64,000 nt of DNA. Source: Escherichia phage SKA64. The translations under genes were made by a program, and so were the position numbers. The stretch lies in sequence record OM362897.1. One strand, 5' to 3'. Positions 6,961-16,602 of the stretch are shown here, piece after piece; position 1 is the first letter of the stretch; each line of letters begins with the position of its first letter. Under the pieces are notes generated by a model that was not told the origin of the DNA, ran no database searches, and saw nothing but the letters and a program-made list of their open reading frames with translations.

Positions 6961-7284
6961 ATGAGATTTACAAGACAAGAGGTAGTTGTGCTGGACGAAG
7001 CAATGACAATGATCGTCTTTTACTATGAAGATATCTTCTGTGCAGCATATCATTTAAATGACATTCAGATTGAATGGCAGCAGATAGCATTCCTGTTGGA
7101 CAAGAGTAATCATTTGGATGGCTTTGAGTATTTGGAGTGGGATGGTGCAAAGGAAGTTAAAATTGTAGGGTTAAATCACGATCAGATTGTTGACATGCAA
7201 TGTAAGTTGTGTCATTATCAGTTCTCAAACAAAGTCAAACTCGAAAGGCAATTGGAGGTGGTTAAAGATGATAGCACTAATTAG
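6961..7284 (+). CDS. hypothetical protein (first gene of the plus-strand block)
   Basis: 107-aa ORF with RBS-like aggaggct upstream. Confidence 0.4.
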   Translation: MRFTRQEVVVLDEAMTMIVFYYEDIFCAAYHLNDIQIEWQQIAFLLDKSNHLDGFEYLEWDGAKEVKIVGLNHDQIVDMQCKLCHYQFSNKVKLERQLEVVKDDSTN

Positions 7285-9255: not shown

Positions 9256-9864
9256 ATGAAACTTGTGCACGGTGTTGGTGTTAATGATGCAAACTATCCG
9301 ATCAGGGTGCAAGATAAGGTTACGGGGAAGAGAGTCATGTGTCCTTTCTATCTAACATGGTCAAATATGTTAGGCAGGTGCTACCTTAAAAATAAGAGAT
9401 TTGAAGCTTATACAATGGCAGAAGTTTGTGACGAATGGAAGATCTTCAGTAACTTCAAAAGCTGGATGGAAAAACAAGATTGGCGGGATAAATTTTTAGA
9501 TAAAGATATCCTCTTTGAAAATAATCTTATATACTGTCCAGAAGCGTGCATTTTTGTTCCTCGTGAAATAAACAATTTCATTGTAGCAAGGAAGCCACAA
9601 AGGGGAGAGTGTTTGATGGGAGTAAGAACAAAAGGTCCATCTTTTGCTGCCAATTGCAGAGATGGGATTAAGGATACTCTTGTTTACCTTGGAACCTTCC
9701 CTACACAGATTGAAGCACATATGAAATACTTAGAGTATAAACTACAACTTCTTAGAGACTTGATTAGAACCGTAGAAGATGATAGATTACTTTTAGGATT
9801 ACGAAGAATTGAAAATAAGATAATCTTAGCCTTATCTTCAAAAACACCAATAGAAAGTTTTTAG
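9256..9864 (+). CDS. AP2-domain DNA-binding protein, possible homing-endonuclease-associated
   Basis: Segment GVRTKGPSFAANCRDGIKDTLVYLGTFPTQIEAH looks like an AP2 domain of the kind found in phage HNH-AP2 endonucleases. No clear nuclease motif seen. Confidence 0.4.
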   Translation: MKLVHGVGVNDANYPIRVQDKVTGKRVMCPFYLTWSNMLGRCYLKNKRFEAYTMAEVCDEWKIFSNFKSWMEKQDWRDKFLDKDILFENNLIYCPEACIFVPREINNFIVARKPQRGECLMGVRTKGPSFAANCRDGIKDTLVYLGTFPTQIEAHMKYLEYKLQLLRDLIRTVEDDRLLLGLRRIENKIILALSSKTPIESF

Positions 9865-9872
9865 GGGGTTAT

Positions 9873-10217
9873 ATGAAAGTTTGGATAGATGATATGAGGA
9901 ACCCAGCCGACTACGGACAGGCAGATGCAATTTGGTTTAAAACGTCACAAGAAGCTATGGCGTTTCTCAATGATCCTGCTAAACTGTATCGAAGAGTAAC
10001 CGAGTGGTCCTTTGACAACGATTTGGGTGAAGATTCTGACCAAGATGGGTATGATGTTTTCCTGTGCTTGGAAGAACTTCTGGCGTTTGGTAAACCTTGC
10101 TTTGGTTCACCTACCATTTTCGTGCATACTTCTAATCCCGCCGCTGGGGATAAATTCATGCTTGCAAAAGAATCCATGCTGCGTTATGGTATTAAAATGA
10201 TTCGTGTGCACTATTAA
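9873..10217 (+). CDS. hypothetical protein
   Basis: 114-aa ORF in the operon-like array. Confidence 0.35.
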   Translation: MKVWIDDMRNPADYGQADAIWFKTSQEAMAFLNDPAKLYRRVTEWSFDNDLGEDSDQDGYDVFLCLEELLAFGKPCFGSPTIFVHTSNPAAGDKFMLAKESMLRYGIKMIRVHY

Positions 10218-10376
10218 GGAGAGAACATGCATCATTCGGTTTGGTCGGAACAAGAAGAGGACGAAGGTTATTTTATCTACCGAGAAGAAGAGGATTGGCC
10301 CGACACAAGTAATGATCTTTTACTTCCAGATACTAGTTTTATCGAGGATAACTTAAGAGAGGAGGATTAGGAAACA

Positions 10377-10733
10377 ATGAGTGGTATTGAAAACAATATT
10401 TGTTACCAACCTCTTACCTGGATGGGTGAGGGTCATTATGCGCAACGTGTTATCGTCTGTGCTGCAAATAAGTATATTTTGAATAATGGTGAAGAGTTAA
10501 TTATTCCTTGTGTTCGACATGCAAATCCTGTATTATCTGCACAATTGAACGTATTGAAAGAAGCAGGTGTTCTTGATAAAGTGCATTGTCTTCCAAACAA
10601 TCAAGGTTTTATTGATCAATACTACAATTGGTGGAGTCGTGAAGATGCATACATTATTGCAAAACACGCAGACCAGATTGACTACGAACGTAATGGTCAT
10701 GATCGTGACCTATTTAGCGAGGGATTATACTAA
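10377..10733 (+). CDS. hypothetical protein
   Basis: 118-aa ORF. Its stop overlaps the next gene's start. Confidence 0.35.
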   Translation: MSGIENNICYQPLTWMGEGHYAQRVIVCAANKYILNNGEELIIPCVRHANPVLSAQLNVLKEAGVLDKVHCLPNNQGFIDQYYNWWSREDAYIIAKHADQIDYERNGHDRDLFSEGLY

Positions 10734-11284
10734 TGTTTATTACAAGCGATTTGCATTTTATGCACAAACGTATACGAGAGTTTGCTCCTGAATATCGACC
10801 GTGGGAAGATATGGACCACATGACAGAAGCACTGATCGAAGCATGGAATAAATGCGCTACGAGTCCAGGTGTCAAGATGTGGCATTTGGGTGACTTCTGT
10901 TTCGGGACTGAAGAAGATACCCGTAAGATTGCTTCCCGCCTCCAAGGTGATATCACTTATTGTGTTGGGAACCATGATTACAGCAAACACCGAGAAGTGC
11001 TTGCAGAGTATGGAGAAGTGGTGTATTATGACGAAGTGAAATATCAGAAGCTGTTCTTCGTCTTAAGCCATTACCCTATGGCCTCCTGGAATAAGCAAGG
11101 TCGTGGATCAATCATGCTACACGGGCATTCCCACGGATCTTTCCCTGATGAAGCTTATGGTAAAATGTTAGATGTGGGTTGGGATGCACACGGAAAAATC
11201 TTACATTTTGATGAGATAATTTCTATGATGAGTAAACGAGATATCGTAACTGTAGACCATCACAAAATAATCAAAGGAGAGTAA
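10733..11284 (+). CDS. calcineurin-like metallophosphoesterase (candidate RNA 3'-phosphatase)
   Basis: Motifs SDLHF, GDF, GNHD, GHSH. Sits directly upstream of the RNA ligase and kinase genes. Confidence 0.6.
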   Translation: MFITSDLHFMHKRIREFAPEYRPWEDMDHMTEALIEAWNKCATSPGVKMWHLGDFCFGTEEDTRKIASRLQGDITYCVGNHDYSKHREVLAEYGEVVYYDEVKYQKLFFVLSHYPMASWNKQGRGSIMLHGHSHGSFPDEAYGKMLDVGWDAHGKILHFDEIISMMSKRDIVTVDHHKIIKGE

Positions 11285-11285
11285 T

Positions 11286-12218
11286 GTGGCTAAATTTAAT
11301 TGCGACGATTTAGTTGAAAAAGGTTTAGTTCATAAGAAAACATATAAAGAAGGAGAGTATTCTGGTCTATCTGTTCTTAAGTATAAGAACAAAGTTTTCT
11401 GGGATAACCTATGGAACATTGATTCTCGTCTTCTAGAATGTCGCGGAATCGTTGTTGACGCTGATGACAATGTTGTTATTTGGCCTTTCACTAAGATTTT
11501 TAATCGTTTTGAGAATGGCACAGATCTACCAGCGGATGAATTTGTAGATGTTGTTCGTAAAGTAAATGGTTTTATGGCCTCTGTAGGTGTATATAAAGGT
11601 CAACTTATCGTATCGACAACAGGAAGCCTTGAATCAGATTTTGCAAGTATTGCAAAGAATCGTATTGTTTCAGAGTGCGATGACATAGAACATTTCATCA
11701 AATGGACAGAGAGTGCAAAAGCAACTTTCCTTTTTGAAATCTGTGATCCTTCTGATCCGCATATTGTCGAAGAAGAACCAGGTGCATACTTAATTGGTGC
11801 CAGAATTCAAAATCCTGACGGGACAAGTTTTATGTTACCTGAAGGTGCTCTTGATGGAATTGCTTCTGTCACCAAATTTAAGCGTCCTGAAGTTCATCCA
11901 ATGGTTAAGTTTTCAGATGTTGTTGAAATGTCTAAACATTGTAAACACGAAGGGTTTGTAGTTCGTGAAACAAACTATCCGTTCAACTTACTTTTAAAAA
12001 TTAAATCACCACACTATCTTACTAAGAAGTTTCTTATGCGCGGTGGAGATAAAAAGTGGGATCTGATTTGGGATAATCCACAAAATGCCAAACAAATTGT
12101 TGACGAAGAATATTACGCTTTGTTAGAATGGATTCGAAATAACTTTACGAAGACTCAATGGGCTGCTTTAAATCAGCAAGAGCGACGTGAAAAAATCGAA
12201 AACTTCTTTGGAGGATAA
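11286..12218 (+). CDS. RNA ligase, T4 Rnl1-like
   Basis: LLECRGIVVDADDNVV, PFTKIFNRFEN and lysine motif VRKVNGF resemble T4 Rnl1 (from memory). GTG start. Confidence 0.6.
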   Translation: MAKFNCDDLVEKGLVHKKTYKEGEYSGLSVLKYKNKVFWDNLWNIDSRLLECRGIVVDADDNVVIWPFTKIFNRFENGTDLPADEFVDVVRKVNGFMASVGVYKGQLIVSTTGSLESDFASIAKNRIVSECDDIEHFIKWTESAKATFLFEICDPSDPHIVEEEPGAYLIGARIQNPDGTSFMLPEGALDGIASVTKFKRPEVHPMVKFSDVVEMSKHCKHEGFVVRETNYPFNLLLKIKSPHYLTKKFLMRGGDKKWDLIWDNPQNAKQIVDEEYYALLEWIRNNFTKTQWAALNQQERREKIENFFGG

Positions 12219-12623
12219 ATGAAACAACTTATCATTTTACGTGGCGTTTCAGGTGCTGGTAAATCTACGGTAGCAGAAATTATTTCTGAAGGTTATTGGC
12301 CTATCTGTGAGGCAGATCAATATCATTACACAGAAAGTGGTGTTTACGATTGGAAGCCAGAAAATGTAGGTAAAGCACACGCATGGTGTCAGAGTATTGT
12401 TCGTGATGCTATGGCATCTAATCTTAACAAGATTATTGTTTCTAACACTTCAACCACAGAGAAAGAACTTAAACCTTATTTAACTCTTGCTGAAGAGTTT
12501 GGTTATCAAGTTATCTCTTTAGTTGTTGAAAATAGGCACGGTAATGATTCAATTCACGAGGTTCCACAATATATTCGTGATCAGCAAGAGAAGCGTCTTC
12601 GTGGTTCACTTAAACTTCAATAA
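12219..12623 (+). CDS. P-loop polynucleotide kinase-like protein
   Basis: N-terminal Walker A ILRGVSGAGKST. Size and context match a 5'-kinase module of a Pnkp-type repair set. Confidence 0.55.
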   Translation: MKQLIILRGVSGAGKSTVAEIISEGYWPICEADQYHYTESGVYDWKPENVGKAHAWCQSIVRDAMASNLNKIIVSNTSTTEKELKPYLTLAEEFGYQVISLVVENRHGNDSIHEVPQYIRDQQEKRLRGSLKLQ

Positions 12624-12632
12624 GGAGAAATA

Positions 12633-12956
12633 ATGCAGATTTATACAGATGATCGTAAATATGAGACAATTTTAGATGAAGATACTGGACGAATTACCGT
12701 TCTCCGCCACGGTGAAGAGTGGCGTGATGAAACGGGAGATAATTACATCTTGTCTCTGATTCATCTTATTGAACAAATGCGCGATGATTACGCTGAACTC
12801 CATTATGAAAATGAGGCGAATAAAGTAAAATTTGAAAATGAGTTAGAAGAGAAAGAATCCGAAATGGTATATCTAAAAGAAGAGATCTCTCGTTTGGAGG
12901 AAGAGATTGATGCTCTTCAGGAAGAGATTTACGAACTCATTAAGGACGGATTATGA
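12633..12956 (+). CDS. hypothetical acidic coiled-coil protein
   Basis: 107-aa ORF rich in E/L heptad-like repeats. Confidence 0.35.
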   Translation: MQIYTDDRKYETILDEDTGRITVLRHGEEWRDETGDNYILSLIHLIEQMRDDYAELHYENEANKVKFENELEEKESEMVYLKEEISRLEEEIDALQEEIYELIKDGL

Positions 12957-13144
12957 AAAAAGATATCGTTGTTGTTGGTTGGCTGACTTGCCCTTGTGGT
13001 AGTAATGACATAACTGTAAACACAGAGGGTGATAAAAATTATTTATTCTACGGTGATAAAATCACTTGCAATACCTGCGGACGTGTTGGTATTATAGAAA
13101 CCGATGATTGCTGCGTTTTTGAATCTTGGGATGAAGATGAATGA
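12953..13144 (+). CDS. hypothetical zinc-ribbon protein
   Basis: 63-aa ORF with CPCG...CNTCG. Confidence 0.35.
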   Translation: MKKDIVVVGWLTCPCGSNDITVNTEGDKNYLFYGDKITCNTCGRVGIIETDDCCVFESWDEDE

Positions 13145-13349: not shown

Positions 13350-14477
13350 ATGGGAGGACTAATGCAACAAACAAATCAAACGCTGTATGGTAAAGATTCA
13401 AAAGGAAAACTTAAACAGTGGACAGTGTATACAGATGGTGCAGTTGTTACTGTAGCTCATGGAAGGGTAGGTGGAAAAATCACAGAAAAATCTTATACAG
13501 CAGAAGCAAAAAACATTGGTCGTTCCAATGAAACAACACCGGAAGAACAAGCTGAACTTGAAGCTTTTGCCAAATGGACAAAACAGTTAAAGAATGGCTA
13601 TTATAAAACAAAAGAAGAAGCTGAAAACCATGTTCCTTCCACACCAATGAAATGCCAGGATTATAAAGATTATCCTGAAAGGGTTGTGTTCCCTGGTTAT
13701 GCACAATACAAACTGAACGGGTTACGTTCTATGATTAACATGAAAGGGGAGTGTTTATCAAAAGCTGGGGAAGTGTATAACCTGCCACCTCATTGGAAAG
13801 GTATTCCAAACTTTATTAGTGAAGTTGTTGGTCATCCTCTTGATGGTGAAGTGTTTGCTGGGTTAGGTGTCCTTAGTCTGCAACAAATTAACAGTGCCTG
13901 GAAGAAGCATAATGCAAATACACCTTTGCTGAATTATTACGTATATGATATTCCAGTTCCAGATCTACCGTTTGAAAAACGTGTTGATGTTCTTGCTGCT
14001 CTTAAGGCAGTAGTTGAAGATTATGGTCTTGACGAGCTTATTTGCGTAGTTCATACAGAGTATATTGAAAACCAAGAACAGTTTGATGCTTTCTATGAAA
14101 AAGCTTTACTTGAGAAAGCTGAAGGTGTAGTATATCGTAATGCTCACGGAGTTTACGAATTTGATAAACGTTCTTATGACGTTATTAAACGTAAGCCTCG
14201 CCACACCCTTGAAGTTAAAGTAACAAATTCAAAAAGTGATAAAAATGGTGATGGAGTGTTGACAGGTGAGATGGAAAATGGTAAAGTAGTCGAATTCTTA
14301 ATGCGTAAAGATGCTCATGAGACTATCAATTATCGTAAAGCAGAGAATGCTTCTACCTTGATTAATCAGTTCGTTGAAATAGAGTATGAAGAATTTTCAG
14401 ATGAAGGTATTCCAACAAAACCTGTTGGTGTTCGTATTCGAGAAATGATCCCAGGCACTTGGGAACCAGCAGAATAA
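13350..14477 (+). CDS. ATP-dependent DNA ligase (nucleotidyltransferase superfamily)
   Basis: Motif I-like KLNGLR, and a C-terminal GVVYRNAHGVYEFDKRSYDVIKRKP segment resembling T7-type ligase motif V (from memory). Confidence 0.55.
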   Translation: MGGLMQQTNQTLYGKDSKGKLKQWTVYTDGAVVTVAHGRVGGKITEKSYTAEAKNIGRSNETTPEEQAELEAFAKWTKQLKNGYYKTKEEAENHVPSTPMKCQDYKDYPERVVFPGYAQYKLNGLRSMINMKGECLSKAGEVYNLPPHWKGIPNFISEVVGHPLDGEVFAGLGVLSLQQINSAWKKHNANTPLLNYYVYDIPVPDLPFEKRVDVLAALKAVVEDYGLDELICVVHTEYIENQEQFDAFYEKALLEKAEGVVYRNAHGVYEFDKRSYDVIKRKPRHTLEVKVTNSKSDKNGDGVLTGEMENGKVVEFLMRKDAHETINYRKAENASTLINQFVEIEYEEFSDEGIPTKPVGVRIREMIPGTWEPAE

Positions 14478-14869: not shown

Positions 14870-15595
14870 ATGATCGAGAATTTTTTTAAAGATATTAAAT
14901 TCGATATTGAATTTTTCAAAAATGCAGCAAAGCACGTAATTGATTGGAATGCCAAAGCACGAGGTGGTGAACAACCTGAATTCACTCAAGAGCTATTTAT
15001 GTCCCAAATCGGGTTCGTTCGTGAAGAGCTTAAAGAGTATGAAACAGCCGCGAAAGTAAACGATCATGTAGAACTCTTGGATGCAGCAGCGGATATTTTT
15101 GTAGTATCCAGTTATCTTACTTACATGTTCTTTGGTGAAGAACATACGATGAATTTCTTGGACTATGCTGTAGGCGATGTTTTTACTCCAACTGTGTATA
15201 CTGATTTTGATGCTTTGGAACAAACATTTACAGAGCCAGTTCAAATGGCACTAATGGCTGCTGGTATTATGCGTATGTCTCGTGACACTCTAATCCGTTC
15301 AAAATATCCAGAAAAGAAAGTTATTAAAGAGGTATTGAAAAGTAATGATTCCAAGTATCCAACTAAACAACAGTTGCTGAAAACTTGGAAAACTTCGGAT
15401 ATCGATTCAGCCATTGCACAAGAATGCGCTGCAATTGAAGAACGAAATGCCAATCGTCCAGAAGGGGCATACACTGGTGTTCATGCTGTTTATAATGAAA
15501 AACAGAAAGTATATGTGTTCTTTGATGATAAAGGTAAGATCATGAAACCATCGACCTTTGTCAAACCTAATATTGCAGGTATTATTAACAAGTAA
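14870..15595 (+). CDS. putative MazG-like nucleotide pyrophosphohydrolase
   Basis: Acidic pattern REELKEYE...LLDAAADIF in a helical context. Weak assignment. Confidence 0.3.
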   Translation: MIENFFKDIKFDIEFFKNAAKHVIDWNAKARGGEQPEFTQELFMSQIGFVREELKEYETAAKVNDHVELLDAAADIFVVSSYLTYMFFGEEHTMNFLDYAVGDVFTPTVYTDFDALEQTFTEPVQMALMAAGIMRMSRDTLIRSKYPEKKVIKEVLKSNDSKYPTKQQLLKTWKTSDIDSAIAQECAAIEERNANRPEGAYTGVHAVYNEKQKVYVFFDDKGKIMKPSTFVKPNIAGIINK

Positions 15596-16563: not shown

Positions 16564-16602
16564 GCCTACCTACTTAATGAGGTAGGCTTTTTAGGAGGCG
16601 TT

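Follow-up and report, generated by a model that had tools for sequence, protein, structure and literature searches.

Do three small genes that lie side by side in the genome of an Escherichia phage make up a pathway for the repair of RNA and, if so, what damage would it mend? The genes occupy positions 10733-12623 on the plus strand of a 64,000-nucleotide (nt) stretch of Escherichia phage SKA64 (sequence record OM362897.1), which was analysed as a whole and is called the window here, and they encode a metallophosphoesterase (MPE), an RNA ligase of the Rnl1 family and a small P-loop polynucleotide kinase. Immune effectors that cleave tRNA or other RNA now count among the major classes of antiviral defence in bacteria, and to our knowledge the Pnkp/Rnl1 pair of phage T4 is the only phage repair countermeasure that is understood in depth. 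We put at roughly 0.7 the probability that the SKA64 trio is a heal-and-seal pathway of RNA repair that is split over separate genes, probably has help from a nearby protein with a cREC domain, and mends RNA cut by nucleases of the host or of competitors. The three proteins belong to well-defined families and have intact catalytic motifs, their genes are tightly packed for translation, and they recur together, in places as fusions, in other viruses and in bacteria.

Three abutting genes with intact catalytic motifs

The window derives from a member of the genus Phapecoctavirus (Stephanstirmvirinae), and its positions 9800-13000 are 95-98% identical to the corresponding regions of ECO340P2, Schickermooser, phAPEC8_ev052, ESCO5, ESCO13 and about 50 other Escherichia phages. 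Within a long run of plus-strand genes, we found open reading frames (ORFs) for the MPE (10733-11284, 183 residues), the ATP-dependent RNA ligase (11286-12218, 310 residues, with a GTG start) and the kinase (12219-12623, 134 residues), exactly where a preliminary description of the sequence had placed three adjacent genes. That description had also called the genes overlapping, which their stop and start positions correct: the MPE gene stops with the codon at 11282-11284, ahead of the ligase GTG at 11286, and the ligase gene with that at 12216-12218, ahead of the kinase ATG at 12219, and thus the three genes abut, the sole true overlap in the block being a TAATG between a 118-residue ORF upstream and the MPE gene. 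Each of the three is preceded by a Shine-Dalgarno sequence of its own, AGGAGAG in the case of the ligase and GGAGG in that of the kinase. Profile searches for the three activities, suggested in the same description, gave matches above the cut-offs throughout (PF09511, AAA_33 and PF00149), and because the ORFs are long, the profile matches strong and the homologues numbered in hundreds, the trio is not a chance pattern.

The ligase matches the Pfam family RNA_lig_T4_1 (PF09511) over residues 51-244 with 56.4 bits (cut-off 28.3, E 5e-15) and phrog_562, a T4-type family labelled 'RNA ligase and tail fiber protein attachment catalyst', at 3e-70. A single-sequence phmmer search against the sequences in the PDB gave no match, and a profile built from 24 sequences aligns residues 48-240 to T4 Rnl1 (2c5u, E 1.3e-10). 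Both motifs for which the protein had been called Rnl1-like are in place, ECRGI at residues 51-55 (nt 11436-11450) and K-x-N-G, here KVNG, at residues 92-95 (nt 11559-11570). In T4 Rnl1, mutagenesis has marked R54, K75, F77, G102, E159, E227, G228, K240 and K242 as essential. R53 of the phage ligase, within ECRGI, aligns to T4 R54, K70 and F72 to K75 and F77, K92-V-N-G95 to K99-E-D-G102, E151 to E159, E222-G223 to E227-G228, and K238 and K240 to K240 and K242. These aligned residues are invariant in the 24 homologues, and the nucleophilic lysine of motif I and eight further residues essential in T4 are conserved in the phage protein, which we propose from its sequence to be the sealing enzyme.

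The kinase scores 40.5 bits against Pfam AAA_33 (cut-off 27) and matches phrog_2071 and phrog_505, 'polynucleotide kinase'. The Walker A motif attributed to it is found as GVSGAGKS at residues 9-16 (nt 12243-12266), and its best matches in sequence and in fold are polynucleotide 5'-kinases. With a profile of 27 sequences, the best match in the PDB is Pnkp1 of the Pnkp1-Rnl-Hen1 complex (4xrp, 1e-7), with further matches to T4 Pnk (1ly1, 1ltq) and to the kinase domain of C. thermocellum Pnkp (4gp7 and related entries). In an AlphaFold model with a predicted local distance difference test score (pLDDT) of 90.9, the top 15 Foldseek matches in the PDB are all C. thermocellum Pnkp kinase or T4 Pnk, at query-normalised template modelling (TM) scores of 0.72-0.79; gluconate and adenylate kinases rank lower, at 0.49-0.66, and shikimate kinases are also behind. 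Across 27 homologues, the P-loop and Asp33, the equivalent of the general base Asp35 of T4, are invariant, as are His107 and His113 near the position of a lid arginine. The ORF ends after the kinase fold, without a HAD domain, and sequence and model together lead us to propose that the protein is the 5'-OH end-healing enzyme.

The MPE matches Pfam Metallophos (PF00149) with 25.4 bits (cut-off 21.5) and phrog_547, 'phosphoesterase', at 9e-56. All canonical motifs of the superfamily are present (SDLH, LGD, GNHD, SHYP and GHSHG); the five metal-binding motifs (DxH, GD, GNH[D/E], H and GHxH) are kept as D6-x-H8, G53-D54, G79-N80-H81, H113 and G131-H132-x-H134, and the metal-site residues D6, H8, D54, N80, H81, H113, H132 and H134 are invariant in 22 homologues of 29-64% identity. 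With this complete set of metal motifs and no HAD domain found anywhere in the cassette, the claims that the gene encodes a calcineurin-type phosphoesterase, and that the phosphatase is of this kind and not the HAD domain of T4 Pnkp, are borne out. The MPE profile matches a single solved structure, the Aquifex protein aq_1665 (PDB 1xm7, E 1e-22), and neither the phosphatase of C. thermocellum Pnkp (4j6o) nor lambda phosphatase (1g5b) at E <= 0.1, so that an assignment to the type formed by the latter two is ruled out. The ligase-associated phosphoesterase PdeM was likewise rejected, the NCBIfam model TIGR04123 matching at E 0.004 with 16 bits (cut-off 150). Relatives of the protein are assigned to COG4186 in GenBank notes, and we place the MPE in the uncharacterised aq_1665/COG4186 family. 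Enzymes of the MPE superfamily, namely C. thermocellum Pnkp and lambda phosphatase, carry out end healing as 2',3'-cyclic phosphodiesterases and phosphomonoesterases (PMC2190708), and from its gene context we propose that the phage MPE is a 2',3'-cyclic phosphodiesterase and/or a 3'-phosphatase that heals 3' ends.

Recurrent linkage and fusion in viruses and bacteria

How constant the association is was assessed in 80 IMG/VR loci that carry a relative of the ligase (41-88% identity), whose flanks were searched with profiles of the three proteins. All three genes are found in 60 of them, in the order MPE-ligase-kinase in 36, kinase-ligase-MPE in 22 and ligase-MPE-kinase in one, and with the kinase and MPE genes divergent from the ligase gene in another one, which is the arrangement of BASEL phage Bas59. 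The remaining loci have kinase and ligase fused in one ORF with no MPE nearby (12), ligase and MPE only (6), kinase and ligase unfused (1), or the ligase alone at the end of a contig (1). Overall, 66 of the 80 loci have an MPE gene within 6 kilobases (kb) of the ligase gene; the two share a strand except in L022 (numbers with an L are those of our loci), and in many loci the gap between them is just 5-30 base pairs. Beyond this set, the ligase gives tblastn matches in 731 isolated phage genomes, tractable phages of E. coli and Pseudomonas among them, and in close as well as distant relatives GenBank already names the trio 'putative phosphoesterase', 'RNA ligase' and 'polynucleotide kinase'. 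Annotated homologues of the same three genes are found in Stephanstirmvirinae, Vequintavirinae and Pakpunavirus phages (Schickermooser gp113-115, Bas59 gp196-198 and Pseudomonas phage K8 gp25-30), and their order varies.

The fused kinase-Rnl1 proteins have about 420-430 residues; they occur in L060:5569-6834, where a Pfam check confirmed AAA_33 followed by RNA_lig_T4_1, and in 11 similar loci of uncultured phages (L057-L076), with no MPE within 6 kb. The kinase-Rnl1 fusion locus also has GIY-YIG/HNH-like genes and a DNA ligase gene.

In bacteria, the trio occurs as split genes in the order kinase-ligase-MPE in metagenome-assembled genomes of Cardiobacteriaceae, and in Leptolyngbyaceae as a single protein of 712 residues with AAA_33, Metallophos and RNA_lig_T4_1 domains in this order, encoded beside RtcB. 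This fusion's kinase domain and phosphatase domain are of the C. thermocellum Pnkp type (the MPE matches 4j6o and 1g5b), its ligase domain shares 32% identity with the phage ligase, and on the bacter_Pnkp model TIGR04075 it reaches only 181 bits (cut-off 750). We observed it at L104:3768-5906 in the chromosome of Leptolyngbya sp. PCC 7375 and in about 25 similar cyanobacterial loci (L090-L121); it also adjoins genes for a Pol-beta nucleotidyltransferase and a DUF29 protein, and no Hen1 was seen in its flank.

When loci are anchored on the kinase instead, 26 of 79 have an Rnl1-like ligase within 6 kb, and 20 further ones have in its place an RNA ligase of the PF09414 type, as collected by jackhmmer, with Pfam verification for the seed, L225, only. 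There, a PF09414-type ligase with an N-terminal PHA02142 OB-fold domain (L225:6647-7780) lies beside a kinase and MPE pair. Because such pairs occur beside either Rnl1-like or PF09414 ligases, kinase and MPE appear to form a portable end-healing unit that is used with different RNA ligases.

In some phages (L003/L004, L005 and L282, the last being Pseudomonas phage K8, gp21-30), the module lies beside genes for NAPRTase/Nampt, ribose-phosphate pyrophosphokinase, a Macro domain protein and an HD-domain phosphohydrolase. These NAD+ salvage and Macro gene surroundings look like a counter-defence neighbourhood.

A cREC protein as probable fourth component

Three genes upstream of the ligase, the plus strand encodes a cREC protein of 114 residues (9873-10217; PF20274 cREC_REC, 61.1 bits, cut-off 27), in which D6, D7, D48 and D50 of the acidic pocket, as well as H85 and N88, are kept in at least 85% of 24 homologues. 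With phmmer, 10 of the 80 ligase loci gave a homologue; the gene directly adjoins that of the ligase in L010-L014, L020 and L022, and in the sister lineages L010-L014 and L020 it stands between the ligase and kinase genes. The cREC domain is a divergent receiver-fold domain for which the processing of 2',3'-cyclic phosphates has been predicted and which is linked to RNA ligases in operons (Iyer et al., 2021; PMC7824862). The cassette probably extends upstream to this gene, which the preliminary description had missed and whose product is, judging from its family and neighbours, a probable accessory component of 3'-end healing.

Between the cREC and MPE genes lie two further plus-strand ORFs. 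The first (10227-10370) encodes an acidic protein of 47 residues, hypothetical in relatives and without a family match, whose membership of the module is doubtful. The second (10377-10733) encodes the 118-residue protein that is translationally coupled to the MPE; it belongs to phrog_839, is labelled PF26092, has a confident predicted model without a match among solved structures, and is possibly accessory. As core parts, both ORFs were rejected, together with a coiled-coil ORF of 107 residues downstream of the kinase gene, since, of the 80 loci, only 3, 1 and 2 have homologues of the 118-, 47- and 107-residue proteins, respectively, alongside the ligase.

Comparison with known repair systems

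The cassette works like T4 Pnkp with Rnl1 and like bacterial Pnkp and is a member of neither architecture. With the T4 system it shares that it is phage-encoded, the ligase family (PF09511/phrog_562), the logic of kinase, 3'-phosphoesterase and ligase, and the fold of the kinase (query-normalised TM score to T4 Pnk 0.75-0.79). The alignment to T4 Rnl1, the matches to polynucleotide kinases and the co-travel of the three genes agree with the earlier suggestion that these are the activities of the T4 heal-and-seal scheme. In T4, however, kinase and phosphatase form one protein with a DxDxT/HAD acylphosphatase (PMC3592404), whereas the cassette has a separate kinase of 134 residues and a binuclear-metal MPE. 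T4 Rnl1 has 374 residues, and the cassette ligase is 64 residues shorter, with KxNG where T4 has KxDG and a threonine where T4 has Lys119. Moreover, the T4 genes pseT and rnlA are not adjacent, while those of the cassette abut and are joined by an extra cREC gene. The T4 pair reverses the cleavage of tRNA by the anticodon nuclease PrrC (PMC4411300).

Bacterial Pnkp of the Pnkp-Hen1 systems (C. thermocellum, Anabaena) shares the three classes of activity, including 3'-end healing by an MPE, and its C. thermocellum kinase domain is the top structural match of the cassette kinase model. The preliminary description had likened the separate genes of the cassette to bacterial Pnkp-type systems; the genes are indeed split here, but bacterial Pnkp is a single polypeptide of about 850 residues whose ligase needs Hen1, whereas the cassette consists of three ORFs with their own stop codons and ribosome-binding sites. 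The two also differ in the MPE, which in bacterial Pnkp is of the lambda-phosphatase type, and in the ligase, which there is not of the Rnl1 type. A Hen1-like methyltransferase was found neither among the scanned flanking ORFs nor in the annotation of relatives over 6 kb on either side. Among cellular proteins, it is the 712-residue Leptolyngbya fusion and not bacterial Pnkp to which the phage ligase is most closely related. In the Pnkp1-Rnl-Hen1 system of Capnocytophaga gingivalis, the ligase gene is separate, as in the cassette, and the Pnkp1 kinase (4xrp) provides the best PDB sequence match; its kinase is, unlike that of the cassette, fused to a T4-like (HAD-type) phosphatase, it needs Hen1, and the sealed junction is 2'-O-methylated (PMC4411300).

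The tRNA ligase Trl1 of fungi and plants belongs to the same Rnl1-type superfamily, and its motif I reads KxNG, as in the phage ligase. The phage ligase profile matched no Trl1 ligase structure in the PDB at E <= 1. Trl1 relies on a 2H cyclic phosphodiesterase and leaves a 2'-phosphate at the junction, for which Tpt1 is needed, whereas neither a 2H nor a Tpt1/KptA gene was seen with the cassette. The kinase profile also matches the stand-alone RNA 5'-OH kinases of the split tRNA splicing system of Mucorales (9d8a, 9drz; PMC11571804).

A proposed pathway and its alternatives

In the pathway that we propose, metal-independent ribonucleases would cut tRNA or other RNA and leave 2',3'-cyclic phosphate and 5'-OH ends; the cutters may be the anticodon nucleases PrrC and RloC, colicin E5/D-type toxins or the collateral cleavage of Cas13-type systems, of host or competitor origin. 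The MPE, possibly with the cREC protein, would then open and remove the cyclic or 3' phosphate, leaving a 3'-OH, and the 134-residue kinase would phosphorylate the 5'-OH with an NTP as donor. Adenylylated on Lys92, the Rnl1-type ligase would activate the 5'-phosphate as AppRNA and join the ends, and the sealed RNA would restore translation for the phage. RNA, tRNA especially, is thus the presumed substrate and counter-defence the presumed purpose, and a role against anticodon nucleases is plausible.

Several observations weigh against this proposal. In the ligase, the essential Lys119 of T4 is replaced by Thr112, which is invariant in the family ('STTG' versus 'KSKG'). The alignment to T4 ends at motif V (phage residue 240, T4 residue 249), beyond which no similarity to T4 Rnl1 was detected; Tyr244 aligns to T4 Tyr246, and because the protein stops 66 residues past Tyr244, it appears from its sequence to lack the all-helical C-terminal domain of about 120 residues (T4 ~255-374) that is the source of the tRNA preference of T4 Rnl1. 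Its tRNA specificity is therefore not established. In the kinase, the substrate-contacting Arg38 of T4 Pnk is replaced by a nearly invariant His36 and, in the profile alignment, Asp85 by an invariant Asn76; as for the lid arginines, the invariant Arg106 corresponds to T4 Arg122, and none is found at the position of Arg126, in a loop whose alignment has an indel. Among 80 loci anchored on the MPE, only 32 have an Rnl1-like ligase within 6 kb, and the MPE family, taken together, extends beyond RNA repair. The searchable literature yielded no biochemistry on the aq_1665/COG4186 family and no published biochemistry or experimental work on the enzymes of the trio, as well as nothing specific on Phapecoctavirus with RNA ligase, on COG4186, or on Vequintavirinae/rV5 with RNA ligase, kinase or phosphoesterase.

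The link to tRNA genes is also looser than had been assumed. The large tRNA cluster whose presence had been taken to suggest counter-defence does exist (3579-5501, minus strand), with ten tRNAs found by ARAGORN and an 11th added by Rfam, but its connection to the cassette is circumstantial: it lies 5.2 kb away on the opposite strand, and in only 14 of 43 related viral loci is there a tRNA within 6 kb of the module (three or more in 9). As a constant neighbour of the module, the cluster was consequently rejected. The 11 tRNA genes of the phage nevertheless count in favour of the proposal, tRNA replacement being one known means by which defences that target tRNA are evaded (PMC10264068). Stephanstirmvirinae are still held back by the tRNA-cleaving retron Eco2 (PMC12916289), and any protection conferred by the cassette is therefore not universal.

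The same biochemical inference would also hold for a heal-and-seal pathway that serves the RNA metabolism of the phage itself and not counter-defence, for instance after collateral damage by phage-encoded or phage-activated endoribonucleases, in the maturation or recycling of tRNA and mRNA, or in the circularisation of RNA. In line with this, no feature of the sequence suggests that the breaks come from a host nuclease, the module is found in a gene block for nucleic-acid metabolism whose products include a DNA ligase, a MazG-like pyrophosphatase, exonucleases and ribonucleotide reductase, and 29 of the 43 related loci are without nearby tRNA genes. However, known host RNA-processing enzymes leave no cyclic-phosphate and 5'-OH ends that would need such a toolkit, the only phage heal-and-seal system that is understood experimentally, T4 Pnkp with Rnl1, reverses PrrC cleavage (PMC4411300), and the NAD+ salvage and Macro genes beside which the module is found elsewhere are treated as counter-defence by Iyer et al. 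(PMC7824862). We consider a role confined to the phage's own RNA unlikely.

That the kinase and MPE chiefly serve a neighbouring DNA ligase by healing DNA ends (5'-OH and 3'-phosphate nicks), with the Rnl1-like enzyme being secondary or acting on DNA/RNA hybrids, is in our view very unlikely, although two observations in its favour tell at the same time against RNA repair. An ATP-dependent DNA ligase gene (13350-14477, plus strand; phrog_114, 2e-74) lies in the same gene block, 0.7 kb downstream of the cassette, and 34 of the 80 ligase loci have a DNA ligase homologue within 6 kb according to phmmer, or 44 according to iterative search. In addition, T4 Pnkp and the kinase of C. thermocellum Pnkp act on DNA too, the top fold matches of the cassette kinase include T4 Pnk with single-stranded DNA (1rrc, 1rpz) and the bacterial kinase with GDP and DNA (4mde), and the MPE weakly matches the PdeM model. 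This last match is, however, far under its cut-off, and roughly half of the loci lack a nearby DNA ligase. It is to an RNA ligase and not to a DNA ligase that the kinase is fused in 12 loci, the cyanobacterial three-domain fusion carries an Rnl1-type ligase and adjoins RtcB, and kinase and MPE pairs that lack an Rnl1-like ligase adjoin another family of RNA ligases.

Least probable of all, and very unlikely in our view, is that the MPE and cREC proteins degrade immune signals derived from cyclic nucleotides or ADP-ribose (anti-CBASS, anti-Thoeris or anti-type III CRISPR) and are merely co-located with the other genes in an anti-defence island, since, even though Iyer et al. propose cyclic ADP-ribose or 2',3'-cyclic nucleotides as possible substrates of cREC and count calcineurin-like phosphodiesterases among the candidates for signal degradation (PMC7824862), NAPRTase/Nampt, Prs and Macro genes neighbour the module in other phages, and members of the MPE family are often found where there is no ligase, the MPE gene is fixed beside that of the ligase in two independent gene orders, with the short gaps given above in many loci, pairs within its family specifically with a polynucleotide kinase homologue, and has a counterpart, though of another MPE family, between kinase and ligase in the cyanobacterial fusion.

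Significance of the module

The module is real and widespread, and of a kind that has already been predicted and annotated in related phages; the general idea that calcineurin-like phosphatases and cREC proteins act with phage RNA ligases was put forward by Iyer et al. (2021; PMC7824862). Our finding therefore confirms and refines an existing annotation and brings no new principle. If RNA repair is indeed its function, a differently built heal-and-seal kit, consisting of a separate mini-kinase, an uncharacterised MPE family, a truncated Rnl1 and an optional cREC protein, would be frequent in large myoviruses that infect Escherichia, Klebsiella, Pseudomonas, Vibrio and other hosts, and the aq_1665/COG4186 phosphoesterase family, and possibly cREC, would receive its first function. 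Easy test systems are at hand, as BASEL phage Bas59, which infects E. coli K-12, has this trio too.

A broader reading, tentative and on balance doubtful, would see in the short Rnl1-type ligase, the mini-kinase, the aq_1665-type MPE and cREC a widespread modular RNA-repair toolkit of phages with possibly new 3'-end chemistry and a role in sensitivity to defence. In such a toolkit, the MPE and/or cREC proteins would be uncharacterised RNA 2',3'-cyclic phosphodiesterases, a 2'-phosphate might be left for removal by host KptA, and the 118-residue protein could be an added specificity or regulatory factor; the toolkit could set the sensitivity of a phage to PrrC, RloC, Cas13, HEPN toxins and colicin-type nucleases.

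Genomic setting and neighbouring genes

The plus-strand block that contains the cassette is headed by a candidate sigma-70-like promoter at 7190-7218 (TTGACA-17-CATTAT with an upstream TG, 10 of 12 matches), identified by its match to the consensus; promoter-like sites in the region are not enriched over shuffled sequence, and the evidence for this one is accordingly weak. A promoter or terminator that would set the three genes apart internally was also sought, and no convincing terminator lies inside the cassette; the one plus-strand terminator-like match among the three genes (10863-10891) is weak, falls within the MPE ORF and has a tail that barely meets the T-run rule. The strongest plus-strand hairpin of this kind downstream is found at 16564-16587, with a stem of 8 base pairs (5 of them G-C) followed by a run of T, and likely marks the end of the transcription unit, as suggested by its sequence; in Schickermooser, a terminator is annotated after the same gene, a coding sequence of about 290 residues that follows the MazG-like gene. 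Three small ORFs, the coiled-coil ORF of 107 residues, a Cys-rich one of 63 and an acidic one of 73, separate the cassette from the DNA ligase gene, and a gene for a MazG-like nucleotide pyrophosphohydrolase (14870-15595, plus strand) lies further downstream in the same block.

Within the tRNA cluster, the tRNA that ARAGORN missed lies at 4720-4804 on the minus strand (Rfam RF00005, 39 bits). Its anticodon loop, CUGUAAA, identifies it as tRNA-Tyr(GUA), and it has a long variable arm and an A73-CCA end; the annotations of relatives list only ten tRNAs. Its neighbour at 4625-4710 on the minus strand, called as tRNA-Asn(GUU), has 86 nt, an extra arm of about 15 nt and G73, and so a class II-shaped body that is unusual for tRNA-Asn. 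We take its anticodon arm to be almost identical to that of E. coli tRNA-Asn. In loci of some uncultured phages, ARAGORN reports suppressor-type tRNAs (CUA, UUA) and a tmRNA-like gene near the module (L040:11576-11651, L085:10734-10806, L045:9183-9255 and L060:12177-12579).

Compared with its annotated homologues, the cassette of the window has in addition a gene for an HNH homing-endonuclease-like protein just upstream of cREC (9256-9864, plus strand; phrog_953, 7e-68). This gene, which lies between an ORF of 156 residues and that of cREC, is an insertion that is not present at this site in Schickermooser and ESCO5, and similar HNH genes are found at other positions in related loci.

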